This document shows positions 12,188 to 15,575 of a stretch of DNA of 27,271 bases, in pieces. The position numbers and the translations under genes were made by a program. This DNA is from an uncultured Candidatus Saccharimonas sp. GTDB lineage: Bacteria; Patescibacteriota; Saccharimonadia; Saccharimonadales; OMJO01. Each line of letters begins with the position of its first letter. Within the stretch, counting starts at the first letter, position 1. Below the pieces are notes generated by a model. The model made no database searches and had not been told where the DNA came from. It saw nothing but the letters and a program-made list of their open reading frames with translations. Where the stretch lies: NCBI GenBank assembly GCA_964349795.1, contig CAYGHF010000001.1, positions 1 through 27,271 of the forward strand. The letters run 5' to 3'.

Positions 12188-12457
12188 TTATTTCACCGTT
12201 GCTACGATATTTTTGTAATAAATGATGACGTATTCGTCACTGCCCTGCTTCAATTCAGTGGCTTCGTAGCTGTTCTTATAAATAATCTTGTCGCCAACTT
12301 TGACACCGTCAACAGATTTGCCAACCGCCACAACTTTGGCTTCTTTTGGTTTTTCTTTGGCGCCATCTGGCAAATAAAAGCCACTTGCCGTCTTGGCTTC
12401 CGCGGCGTGATGCTGAGCTACTACATACTCAGCCTGTGGTTGGATTTGTACAGCCAT
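12188..12457 (-). CDS. groS: Co-chaperonin GroES
   Basis: KTASGFYLPDGAKEKP, VVAVG, VKVGDKI; directly upstream of groL; SD GGAGG. Confidence 0.95.
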   Translation of the reverse strand: MAVQIQPQAEYVVAQHHAAEAKTASGFYLPDGAKEKPKEAKVVAVGKSVDGVKVGDKIIYKNSYEATELKQGSDEYVIIYYKNIVATVK

Positions 12458-12485
12458 CCTATAACCTCCCTTAAAGATTCATAAA

Positions 12486-12680
12486 GGGTTCAGACTTCTC
12501 GCAATAATCACTCATTCCGCACTTGATCGTAACAACAGACAGCACCAATGACGTGCTGCAATCGCCCATTCTTCGCTCAGCGTAGCTACGGCTATGCCTC
12601 TCTCAGATTGAACAATTTCGCTAACGTCAGCTACTCTCTGTTATCTACGACAAGTACAAAATGAGTGATAGTCTCAACCC
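12486..12680 (-). other. Rod-like ~195-nt hairpin in the groESL 5' leader
   Basis: Ends pair: gggtt/aaccc, agact/agtct and a perfect 10-bp atcactcatt(12507-16)/aatgagtgat(12660-69), continued by stacked helices whose G-U pairs work only on the minus strand. Confidence 0.6.
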
Positions 12681-12681
12681 A

Positions 12682-12708
12682 TTAGCACTCATAATACCCG
12701 AGTGCTAA
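12682..12708. promoter_or_regulatory. CIRCE operator (HrcA binding site)
   Basis: Exact consensus TTAGCACTC-N9-GAGTGCTAA upstream of groES-groEL. Confidence 0.97.
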
Positions 12709-12720
12709 TTTGCTTGTCAA
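12691..12720 (-). promoter_or_regulatory. sigma70-type promoter of groESL, overlapped by CIRCE
   Basis: TTGACA(12720-15)-N18-TATTAT(12696-91) on the minus strand. Confidence 0.75.
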
Positions 12721-12738
12721 CAGTTAGACTTAACCAAC

Positions 12739-12760
12739 AAAAAAACAGCCTTCGTGGCTG
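12739..12760 (-). terminator. Intrinsic terminator
   Basis: Minus strand CAGCC-ACGAA-GGCTG followed by T7. Confidence 0.75.
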
Positions 12761-12853
12761 CCTGATAAGTGAGAATTACGTTGAGATTACAGTGTGTGGC
12801 CAGAGACCGGAAGGAGGGGGTGGCGCGCAGCGCATGGTATGACCGCATGTGCG

Positions 12854-13316
12854 TGTCGTCCATGACATACGCGTCACCCCACTCCAACCGGAAACAACAC
12901 TCCGCCCAGCGTCCGGTCAGATCAGCGTAGAGGCTGATCTACGCGTATCTCACCGCCCCCCTTGGGATGACGCCCTGACGGCTTCGCCACGTTTGCGGTC
13001 TTGCCGCTTGGCGTCGCCTTGCTTGCGCTTCTCTTCCTTCTCTCGAAGGATCTGTGCCTTTGACTTTGACATATATCACCTCCTCAGGTGCTTGAGTGTC
13101 TACCGACGACCCATCTGGCCGGTGTATGCCCGAAAGGGCAACGGCTTCTGTCGGGCCAGACCAACCTCTCGAACGACTCGGTCGTCGTCCAGGTGGTAGG
13201 GGTCGCTGGCTGCACGCCGCAGCGCATCACGCACAAGTGTGCGTTCTGAGCCCTCACGTGCTCTTTTGTCTGACTTAGACACTACATGCTCCTGGTTGTT
13301 CATGTCGTCCATGACA
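12854..13316. repeat. 14-bp direct repeat, each copy a small hairpin (12854-12867 and 13303-13316)
   Basis: tgtcgtccatgaca occurs twice; the minus strand reads TGTC-ATGGAC-GACA. Confidence 0.85.
12950..13072 (-). CDS. Unannotated 40-aa basic small protein MSKSKAQILREKEEKRKQGDAKRQDRKRGEAVRASSQGGR
   Basis: AGGAGGTGA (13084-76) precedes ATG 13072, with 6 nt between AGGAGG and ATG; purine-rich coding-like sequence; 14 K/R and 6 D/E; stop TGA at 12952-12950. Confidence 0.6.
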   Translation of the reverse strand: MSKSKAQILREKEEKRKQGDAKRQDRKRGEAVRASSQGGR

Positions 13317-13485
13317 GGGGCTGGGTTTCACGTATCCTTCCGTGAAATACATAGTCACAATAGTGACTGCGCGTTTCACAGAAGGATGTCTGTAATCTCA
13401 ACGTACATGTGCCCGAACCTTGCGGCTCAAGGACACAACAAAATCAACAAAGCATGGCAAACCATGATTTAATCGATTTAGCAAT

Positions 13486-13513
13486 ATTATACCCCCGATT
13501 CTGTATTTTGCAA
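13486..13513 (-). promoter_or_regulatory. sigma70-type promoter pointing into the structured element
   Basis: Minus strand TTGCAA(13513-08)-N16-TATAAT(13491-86). Confidence 0.6.
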
Positions 13514-13547
13514 GAATTAAAAACCGAGCACTTGCTACAATACTCCT

Positions 13548-14132
13548 ATGCCCAAAACCGACTATTCCCCTGTTGTCGACATGCCGGCAAACAGTCCCTT
13601 TTTTGATTTCTCAATTGGCAAGATTACAGACGTTATGGCAGACGCAACTACCGGCATTGGCAAATACAACGAACGTCGGCAAGACGTCTATAGTGACTTT
13701 TTTCATGGCGAGCGCAACATACACGTTGGTGTCGACCTGTTCATGCCCGCCGGCACAACCGTGAAAGCCTTTTCCAAGGGCGAAATATTTATGACTGCCT
13801 ACAATAGTGCCCTAGGTGACTACGGCTATACGATAATCTGCAAACATAAACTTCACGATGGACGTGAAATATACGCTCTGTATGGTCATCTGAGTAGTGG
13901 GTCTACCTCGCATAAGTTGGCTGGCCAAACAATCAGCCAAGGTGAAACAATCGGCTGGATCGGAGATGAATCAGAAAATGGCGGCTGGCCACCACATGTT
14001 CACTTTCAACTATCTTGGGAAGCCCCAGAAACATGCGACATGCCCGGAGTCGTAGCCCAAAAAGACTTACCCGAGGCACTTCAACTATACCCCGACCCAG
14101 CATCAATATTGGACACTGTTGATTCAAAATAA
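13548..14132 (+). CDS. M23 family metallopeptidase, no signal peptide
   Basis: HxxxD (HVGVD), YGHL and HxH (WPPHVHFQ); TACAAT lies 6 nt before ATG. Confidence 0.88.
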   Translation: MPKTDYSPVVDMPANSPFFDFSIGKITDVMADATTGIGKYNERRQDVYSDFFHGERNIHVGVDLFMPAGTTVKAFSKGEIFMTAYNSALGDYGYTIICKHKLHDGREIYALYGHLSSGSTSHKLAGQTISQGETIGWIGDESENGGWPPHVHFQLSWEAPETCDMPGVVAQKDLPEALQLYPDPASILDTVDSK

Positions 14133-15130: not shown

Positions 15131-15575
15131 AGCACAGATGGAGAAAGAGGATGGCGGGGCGACCAAGTGGTCGGGAGATGGAGGTAGTTTCGGGGCGAGA
15201 GCCGCGACTGACCTTCGGTATCCCGACCACTTGGCGCTGGATGCCACTGACTCGACGGGTGGGCAGATTTCGCCTCTTTCAACTGTGGTTGCTGAGACCA
15301 CGTCTACCCGCTGTCTGTGCTTAGTGGCATGCCCCTCCCACACGGTGATTGCTCGTCCCTCTCTGGGCGGATACCTTGGGACCCCGCGTGGTACGGAGAC
15401 TGGGGTGATGCGGGTAGCTTGCGCTACGGTGGATGCGAGTGCATCTCTCATTCCCCCCAAATGATGTCATGCTCTTGCGAGCGGCTTTTTTGGGCTTTTT
15501 CTCCTCTCTTGTCTTACAACTAGGTATCAAAACACACGGGCGTTCTGGTACCTAGCTGTAAAATCCATCTGTGCT
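15131..15575. ncRNA. Second candidate structured element bounded by a perfect 12-bp inverted repeat; strand uncertain
   Basis: agcacagatgga(15131-42)/tccatctgtgct(15564-75); 14-bp perfect helix 15163-76/15221-34; atgccact/agtggcat; 13-bp helix 15514-26/15549-61 with one non-canonical pair; several tetraloop hairpins. Confidence 0.45.

Follow-up and report, generated by a model that had tools for sequence, protein, structure and literature searches.

A basic 40-codon frame as the probable second cistron of a tightly folded, end-paired mRNA upstream of groESL in Saccharimonadales

Does a short, lysine- and arginine-rich open reading frame (ORF) that is hidden in a folded element next to the main chaperone operon of an uncultured Candidatus Saccharimonas sp. 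encode a protein, and if so, in what kind of transcript and under what control? The locus lies in contig CAYGHF010000001.1 of assembly GCA_964349795.1, and the entire stretch of 27,271 nucleotides (nt) that we analyzed is hereafter called the window. According to the original prediction, made from the letters of the window, a structured noncoding element contains a 40-amino-acid (aa) frame, here ORF B, that is preceded by a Shine-Dalgarno (SD) sequence locked in a hairpin and is translated conditionally. The evidence assembled here is comparative and thermodynamic, with few close relatives available, and it leads us to regard ORF B as probably translated. It is probably the second gene of a small, separately transcribed bicistronic mRNA, in which it would be made by coupling to the first cistron, ORF A. 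Saccharibacteria are ultra-small, host-dependent bacteria with genomes of 0.6-1 Mb in which little that is dispensable is retained, and to our knowledge, hardly any work has addressed their small proteins or structured mRNAs.

ORF B and its counterparts in related units

ORF B occupies positions 12950-13072 of the minus strand (ATG at 13072-13070, TGA at 12952-12950). Its product, MSKSKAQILREKEEKRKQGDAKRQDRKRGEAVRASSQGGR, comprises 7 lysines and 7 arginines (35% K/R) and 6 acidic residues (D/E) among 40, the only aliphatic residues being I8, L9 and V32. The SD (AGGAGGTGA; AGGAGGUGA; 13076-13084, minus strand) precedes the ATG by 7 nt, counted from the AGGAG core, and the exact 9-mer is present once in the window and five times in the 693-kb genome. 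Exactly two combinations of SD and start are found on the element, AGGAG-6-GTG (60 aa, ORF A) and AGGAG-7-ATG (40 aa, ORF B), both in the sense orientation, and none on the antisense strand. The predicted basic frame with its strong SD is thus present as described, and its hydrophilic product, with three aliphatic residues, is indeed unlike the membrane-acting type I toxins. AlphaFold2 predicts a single helix for ORF B (residues 5-37; mean pLDDT 83, from a 4-sequence alignment). Searches of ORF A and ORF B against Pfam, NCBIfam, PHROGs and the sequences in PDB yielded no profile or family match, and the neighbours of both in the ESM Atlas are unnamed, score below the reliable level and indicate no family.

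Around 15 related elements were found in Saccharimonadales genomes and metagenomes, all of them upstream of a groES promoter with the CIRCE (controlling inverted repeat of chaperone expression) element. These units come from genomes of the family (G002, G003, G004, G008 with two in tandem, G009 and G010), from other families of the order (G227 and G029), from metagenome-assembled genomes (L049, L067 and L069) and from metagenomic contigs (L042/L090, L095, L097, L103, L104/L105 and L106); the element of the window is denoted G000. Their order of parts is a promoter, a 5' hairpin, the arm GUUGAGAUU, a GC-rich region of 0.55-1.55 kb, a 3' hairpin with G-rich and C-rich strands, the arm AAUCUCAAC, a terminator in most members, and the CIRCE-type promoter. 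BLAST searches with the element, run against the family and 400 sampled genomes of the order, gave chance-size matches only; element interiors diverge too fast to be aligned by BLAST between genera. Pattern scans of metagenomes and genomes produced mostly chance matches outside Saccharibacteria. The tandem units of G008 (L030, contig C13, approximately 1138-2693), located upstream of groES, each have their own promoter and terminator, and one carries a single 220-aa ORF, whereas the other carries a short ORF A and ORF B.

The slot of ORF B recurs in these units. After a short ORF A, a second strong SD and start appear 13-40 nt past the stop and open a basic frame of 40-52 aa. The arrangement is AGGAG-7-ATG both in the window (40 aa) and in G008b (46 aa, following a 53-aa ORF A with AGGAG-4-ATG), AGGAG-4-ATG in G004 (52 aa) and AAGGG-8-GTG in G227 (43 aa). 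In G004 and G227, the basic ORF starts 330-341 nt from the 5' arm, right after the short ORF A. The L106 frame is 40 aa long, and in G010 a 46-aa frame (AAGGG-6-GTG) follows a long ORF A. In L105, the ATG comes after the same SD hairpin as in the window, and the 52-codon basic frame ends at the same GGR-stop inside a kept hairpin. In the X16 contig, the SD of ORF B is retained, and the ATG GCT occurs in a different context. It is this recurrence of a strong SD, a start and a basic ORF at the same place that exceeds the expectation by chance. Other members possess a longer first or main ORF of 94-265 aa, basic and then acidic, which is weakly alignable and shows third-position change in excess.

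The clearest indication of coding comes from a sister clade. The ORF B products of G008b and L106 are identical at 26 of 37 aa, with 9, 7 and 21 mismatches at the three codon positions, proportions of synonymous (pS) and nonsynonymous (pN) differences of 0.71 and 0.22 (pN/pS 0.31), and indels in whole codons. When G008b is compared with L103, the ORF B frame is free of stops, with pN/pS of 0.55 and a BLOSUM sum of 74, whereas the other two frames contain stops and have ratios of 1.0-1.5 and BLOSUM sums of 24 and 27; lysine-to-arginine replacements are brought about by three-base changes. These comparisons show that in the sister clade the slot is under purifying selection at the protein level. 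For the ORF B of the window and its own clade, the evidence is weaker. The similarity of the peptide to G009 reaches a z-score of 6.5 over shuffles and is specific to the frame (63 against at most 33 for the other eight frame pairs; mismatches 11/11/21). Given the positional equivalents and the purifying selection in the sister clade, ORF B is probably a real small gene and not a chance frame.

ORF A and the predicted partial masking of the ORF B start

ORF A (13100-13282, minus strand; 60 aa, GTG start) is preceded by its own SD, AGGAG at 13289-13293, 6 nt before the GTG. In nearly every member, the first strong SD and start lie 116-132 nt from the 5' arm. The ATG at 13312 reported by the ORF finder is not the start of ORF A because a 2-nt insertion in X5 and L042 lies between this ATG and the GTG, inside the spacer between the SD and the start. 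Compared with the 93%-identical X16 contig, ORF A shows 18 nucleotide differences, 11 of them synonymous and 7 giving 5 replacements; compared with L105, at 68% nucleotide identity overall, amino acid identity is 66% and the ratio of nonsynonymous to synonymous substitution rates (dN/dS) is 0.18. Between G008b and L106, pN/pS is 0.25. Homologues were recognized in G004, G008b, G227, P0006 and P0007, and the core G-S-E-R-x-x-V-R-x-x-L-R-R-A-x-x-x-P-x-x-x-D-D-D is common to ORF A of the window, G008b, L106, L103, G004 and G227. Searched against 1.84 billion representative proteins, the ORF A profile retrieved only 6 clusters, all from such units, and it was positive in 4 of 401 sampled genomes of the order; a word-indexed protein search returned only the window's own copy and one 95% relative. 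The peptide is hydrophilic, and AlphaFold2 models it with low confidence as two short helices (pLDDT 62). By these comparisons, ORF A is a real gene under purifying selection and belongs to a new family of small proteins. The host element, predicted as a structured noncoding RNA, did not hold up as such: with the 60-aa ORF A (13282-13100) upstream of ORF B, the element seems to be a bicistronic mRNA or an RNA that is both coding and structural.

The two cistrons meet in a predicted masking structure (13068-13100, minus strand). Its SD hairpin, CACCU (13090-13086) paired with AGGUG (13081-13077), consists of 5 bp with a GAGG loop (free energy -6.9 kcal/mol). The outer helix, GACA (13100-13097) with UGUC (13071-13068), consists of 4 bp that join the final base of the ORF A stop and the three bases following it to the UG of the ORF B start codon and the two bases beyond. 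The 36-nt segment from the ORF A stop to just past the ORF B AUG has a free energy of -10.7 kcal/mol, and the structure is present in the full-length minimum free energy (MFE) fold. In L105, the 19-nt SD hairpin is identical despite the overall identity of 68%. The anti-SD arm or the partner of the AUG lies within approximately 12 nt of the ORF A stop in G000, L105, G008b, L106 and G004; the strength of the hairpin differs among relatives, from -2.9 to -6.9 kcal/mol. The SD hairpin that had been predicted is therefore present, but to call the SD locked is an overstatement: in the full-transcript ensemble, AGGA, its first four bases, is paired with a probability of just 0.2-0.57, compared with 0.75-0.96 for GGUG. 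Conditional translation likewise stands as plausible, given that the SD and AUG are partly masked; in the thermodynamic model, pairing of the SD is nearly flat from 25 to 50 C, with no melting by heat.

Because the stop of ORF A abuts the SD hairpin, translational coupling is the most economical reading of the masking. An mRNA that runs from the promoter at 13513-13486 to the terminator at 12763-12743 would encode ORF A (60 aa) together with ORF B (40 aa). A closing helix would hold its 5' end to its 3' end, and both ribosome-binding sites would be masked in the folded RNA, the SD and AUG of ORF B being paired with bases 0-12 nt after the ORF A stop. A ribosome that ends ORF A would cover and melt this structure, such that translation of ORF A would be a prerequisite for that of ORF B. 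This coupling is inferred from geometry. More speculatively, ribosomes may gain access to the unit as a whole only once the end-clamped RNA has been unfolded or processed, in the manner of type I toxin mRNAs.

The fold itself is exceptional. The element (12777-13405, minus strand) is end-paired, very tightly folded and comprises both cistrons, and the GC content of the island that holds ORF B is 57-64% compared with 45.3% for the genome. The minus-strand RNA folds at -297 kcal/mol, with a z-score of -18.6 over 20 dinucleotide shuffles and -10.1 in a separate run with 12 shuffles; the plus strand has a z-score of -6.9. For the 12 members tested, folding is in every case much stronger than that of shuffled sequences (z from -4.6 to -12). 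The closing helix is a perfect 16-bp inverted repeat formed by the 5' arm UACGUUGAGAUUACAG (13390-13405) and the 3' arm CUGUAAUCUCAACGUA (12777-12792), both on the minus strand and paired in the MFE structure. Its 9-bp core (GUUGAGAUU) does not vary among 14 of the 15 members compared, its inner 3-5 bp covary (ACAG/CUGU, AUGGC/GCCAU, GCGG/CCGC, GUGAG/CUCAC and AUGAG/CUCAU), and its G-U pairs are valid on the sense strand only. In L105 (150-165 and 830-845), each arm carries one extra base (GUUGAGAAUUACAG and CUGUAAUUCUCAAC), which amounts to a compensating inserted pair.

Other minus-strand helices flank the two frames. The 5' leader hairpin (13408-13437; UGUGUCC..GAGCC-GCAA-GGUUC..GGGCACA), present in the MFE structure, is supported by RNAalifold over 13 members, with 11 pairs, 7 of which show compensatory double changes. 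A long hairpin follows the 5' arm in the 5' untranslated region (UTR; 13334-13387; MFE) and is kept with changes in L105. The ORF B stop lies in a hairpin at 12914-12955 (MFE; contains the UGA), an extended form of the 12925-12944 stem, with four compensatory double changes against L105 (G-C to A-U, A-U to G-C, G-C to U-A and U-A to C-G; read by eye). Two mutually exclusive hairpins had been predicted just after this stop, and both exist in the sequence, but a switch between them is not supported: the 12925-12944 stem alone appears in the MFE structure and has comparative support, and the alternative 12919-12940 stem has an A.C mismatch in L105 (by eye). The long 3' UTR hairpin (12807-12891; MFE), with a G-rich 5' strand and a C-rich 3' strand, changes from GGGGUG/CACCCC to AGAGGUGGC/GCCACCUCU in L105 and has an GGUCUGGGUG/CACCCAGACC-type motif in other members; for the 3' hairpins, covariation was in several cases judged by eye from an alignment of two sequences. 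Two copies of the motif UGUCAUGGACGACA are found in the RNA (minus strand), one at 13297-13316, shortly before the ribosome-binding site of ORF A, and one at 12848-12867, in the apex of the 3' hairpin. Both copies are recognizable in L105 and are possible sites of protein binding or alternative pairing.

Weighing the readings of the locus

An untranslated ORF B would be expected if the purine-rich, T-poor stretch and the AGGAGGUGA/CACCU hairpin belonged to a structured RNA with a function of its own, such as binding a protein or the ribosome, and the frame resulted from composition. We consider this unlikely, but a series of observations suits it, or otherwise weighs against ORF B as a translated cistron. 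The folding z-scores of the element and its relatives are themselves of this kind. The ORF B stretch contains 9-11% T, all three frames are open, and frame 0 stays open in 36% of shuffles; in so T-poor a stretch, the open frame is uninformative. The similarity to G010 (z-score 5.7) is nearly matched in an alternative frame (46 against 51-52), and the mismatches (16/19/21) show no third-position bias. The 647-nt X5 contig (96-97% identical, with 16 substitutions and two short insertions) is the sole such relative that fully covers ORF B. It has zero changes at 12898-13150, across ORF B and its flanks, compared with 9 substitutions at 13151-13312, where ORF A varies, so that dN/dS is not computable for ORF B, and this invariance could equally reflect constraint at the RNA level or recombination. 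Conservation of the C-terminal GGR-stop may likewise be driven by the RNA, given that this stop is in a covarying hairpin. The two ORF B clades have no detectable homology in profile-profile comparison (hhalign probability 0.1), and for this reason their orthology rests on position, SD context, size and composition. Only the window's own copy came up when ORF B was the query of a word-indexed protein search; gene callers thus almost never call it. The one RNA-labelled run with a relative, flagged as probably DNA, spans only 13074-13331.

Nor is the slot universal. It recurs in the relatives described above, but is absent in G002, G003, G008a, G029, L049 and L069, the six members without ORF B all having a long ORF A. 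In L103 (2690-2830), the TTG start close to the SD of ORF B is shifted by one base relative to the frame kept in G008b and L106, which could be due to a recent frameshift, an assembly error or something unusual. With six members lacking it and L103 out of frame, ORF B is restricted to certain clades, and the RNA family can dispense with it. What speaks against a purely structural role is the clear frame-specific coding signature of the sister-clade slot, the retention of SD and start while the body diverges with changes in length, and the frame-specific similarity between G000 and G009. Furthermore, the comparison of G000 with L105 reveals no helix obviously kept in the interior of ORF B (UCCUUC/GAAGGA at 13050-13035 is lost), while the flanking hairpins covary. 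A chance ORF behind a chance SD-like 9-mer is extremely unlikely: although a window as large as this one would be expected to hold approximately 0.2 exact copies of the 9-mer and an open frame is expected from composition in 36% of cases, SD, start and basic ORF occupy the same position in G008b, L106, G004, G227, G010 and L105, the last of which has an identical SD hairpin.

If ORF B is translated, its SD hairpin could instead serve as an autonomous RNA thermometer or stress switch, opened by heat and not by coupling, which comes nearest to the original prediction. The partial pairing of SD and AUG, the constant position of the unit beside a CIRCE/groES heat-shock promoter and the shortness of the hairpin (5 bp, -6.9 kcal/mol) lend this mechanism some limited likelihood. 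However, the modelled SD pairing hardly moves between 25 and 50 C, and the GAGG core is already in the loop. Furthermore, the hairpin strength varies in relatives from -2.9 to -6.9 kcal/mol, the constant feature being a masking arm close to the ORF A stop. A module of the toxin-antitoxin or type I toxin kind, in which a stable, end-paired and inert mRNA is activated by processing to yield a harmful small protein (ORF B or ORF A), is very unlikely. The helix closing the 5' and 3' ends, the masked ribosome-binding sites and the tiny ORFs recall the hok and aapA1 mRNAs, and a basic product with a partner that has an acidic patch resembles a toxin-antitoxin pair. Yet both products lack hydrophobic character (in ORF B, 3 residues are aliphatic and 35% are K/R), the plus strand offers no convincing antisense promoter or terminator (a 9/12 match only), and the mRNA is 2-6 times longer than those of type I toxins. 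A single copy at a fixed syntenic site across several families is also more in keeping with a housekeeping or stress gene than with an addiction module.

Under coupled translation of ORF B from a two-gene mRNA, the reading that we prefer, our best guess is that the two products are a stress-linked pair associated with nucleic acid or the ribosome, because of their charge and size and the fixed position beside the CIRCE-controlled groESL. The two proteins possibly interact through the DDD patch of ORF A. That ORF B binds nucleic acid, the ribosome or its own RNA, as had been proposed, is speculation, for which the sole structural hint is the predicted single charged helix. A more elaborate possibility, which appears quite unlikely, is a new dual-function RNA of Saccharimonadales, long-lived and end-clamped, in which a dedicated factor would recognize the closing helix with its near-invariant core, and ORF A (acidic DDD) and ORF B (basic helix) would join the RNA or the ribosome in a stress-linked particle coupled to groESL.

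Known systems and genomic setting

The full-length aapA1 mRNA is translationally inactive until its 3' end is processed (PMC5416894), and long-distance interactions between the 5' and 3' ends occur in type I toxin mRNAs (PMC6733600). The element resembles such mRNAs (hok/Sok of plasmid R1; aapA1/IsoA1 of Helicobacter pylori) in its small ORFs, compact mRNA, paired ends, sequestered ribosome-binding site and presumably inert full-length form (PMC5416894, PMC6733600, PMC9841398). A long-distance lock between the ends with a sequestered SD, typical of these mRNAs, is found in the element as the 16-bp closing helix, with a modelled pairing probability of 0.96-0.99 for the SD of ORF A and partial pairing of that of ORF B. 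Unlike the type I systems, the element encodes hydrophilic products, ORF B being basic, and not membrane peptides, and an antisense RNA is not evident. Its RNAs are 630-1560 nt long compared with 150-400 nt, and it is a single-copy unit fixed beside groESL across families, with two cistrons (or one long cistron) under apparent purifying selection.

RNAIII/hld of Staphylococcus aureus and SR1/SR1P of Bacillus subtilis are dual-function RNAs, both coding and regulatory. Like the element, they are large multi-hairpin RNAs with long-range pairing of the ends and a peptide of 26-39 aa. The element differs in having no known or predicted regulatory target and no sequence or Rfam relationship to them, and in being mostly coding in many members. 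The coat-replicase junction of phage MS2 and the ribosomal-protein operons are textbook cases of translational coupling with a masked downstream SD. There, as in the element, the downstream SD and AUG are paired with the end of the upstream cistron, where termination would open them, whereas for the element coupling is deduced from geometry and the hairpin is weak in some relatives. ORF B is short, highly basic and probably helical, like the arginine-rich-motif peptides (lambda N, HIV Tat and Rev), but is a mixture of K, R, E and Q instead of an R-rich block, has no identified cognate RNA hairpin and is not similar to known families. With RMF and other small basic ribosome-associated stress proteins, it shares small size, basic charge, the context of stress and extensive UTR structure; it lacks homology to RMF (Pfam and NCBIfam are negative), and a link of ORF B to the ribosome is a conjecture. 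In its presumed working, the element is closest to a masked, translationally coupled bicistronic mRNA, and it is a member of none of the systems compared.

Our literature search found no description of such a unit, which is not proof of its absence. ORF A and ORF B look like orphan microproteins whose shared mRNA is syntenic and unusually structured. In several families, a unit of 0.6-1.6 kb has persisted at a single fixed site next to the main chaperone operon, and it combines an unusual trio of features: two orphan microproteins, folding far beyond that of normal mRNAs and an end-to-end helix with a near-invariant 9-bp core. If translated, ORF B would represent a new family of basic microproteins and a clean natural case of masked-SD coupling; if the RNA also acts as an RNA, the unit would represent a new class of dual-function RNA. 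In practice, what was taken to be a noncoding structured element and is missed by gene callers should be annotated as a two-gene operon.

The element is present in a single copy in the 693-kb assembly. Consensus scans place its sigma-70-like promoter, TTGCAA-N16-TATAAT, at 13486-13513 (minus strand; position kept in L042 and L105) and its intrinsic terminator at 12743-12763 (minus strand); in most relatives, a hairpin and T run likewise follow the 3' arm. Between the -10 box and the 5' hairpin (13440-13485, minus strand, and the equivalent leaders), most members share a TTTAAT/ATTTAA-like motif, which may be an operator or a leader signal. Directly downstream of the element are the groES promoter, TTGACA-N18-TATTAT, with CIRCE (TTAGCACTC-N9-GAGTGCTAA; 12681-12720, minus strand), and then groES and groEL, and the same order follows the element in relatives. 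This promoter overlaps the canonical CIRCE inverted repeat and is followed by a long leader before groES (12486-12720, minus strand). On the plus strand of the element, the consensus scan found one weak 9/12 promoter-like site and no terminator, and thus an antisense RNA is not evident. The window contains no tRNA or tmRNA genes and no Rfam match at the gathering threshold (ROOL, GOLLD, OLE, HEARO, tmRNA, RNase P and group I and II introns included). At E<=10, matches in 12400-13700 were at chance level (E 3.6-5.9, 15-17 bits).

Two mobile-element interpretations of the repeats were rejected. The 16-bp inverted repeat does not denote a miniature inverted-repeat transposable element or another transposon because it is single copy, is found at the same site upstream of CIRCE/groES in all relatives and has G-U pairs valid on the sense strand only. 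GTTGAGA/TCTCAAC is not an integron attC-like site given that it does not fit RYYYAAC/GTTRRRY and that each unit has its own promoter and terminator.

Elsewhere in the window, a second GC-rich, hairpin-dense stretch is located at 15131-15575 (plus strand), with a terminator-like hairpin and T run near 15470-15490, and Rfam gives no match to it even at E<=10. At its 5' end, an SD-like GGAGAAAGAGG is followed by an ATG, and the stretch may be another structured transcript with a small ORF. At the end of the contig (26981-27271, minus strand), CCGCAAGGTTYGGG...TTGAGATT is held in common with the 5' leader of the element, and a matching 3' arm is absent. A 46-nt piece of this region is repeated exactly on contig C37 and partially on contigs C7 and C69 of the same assembly.

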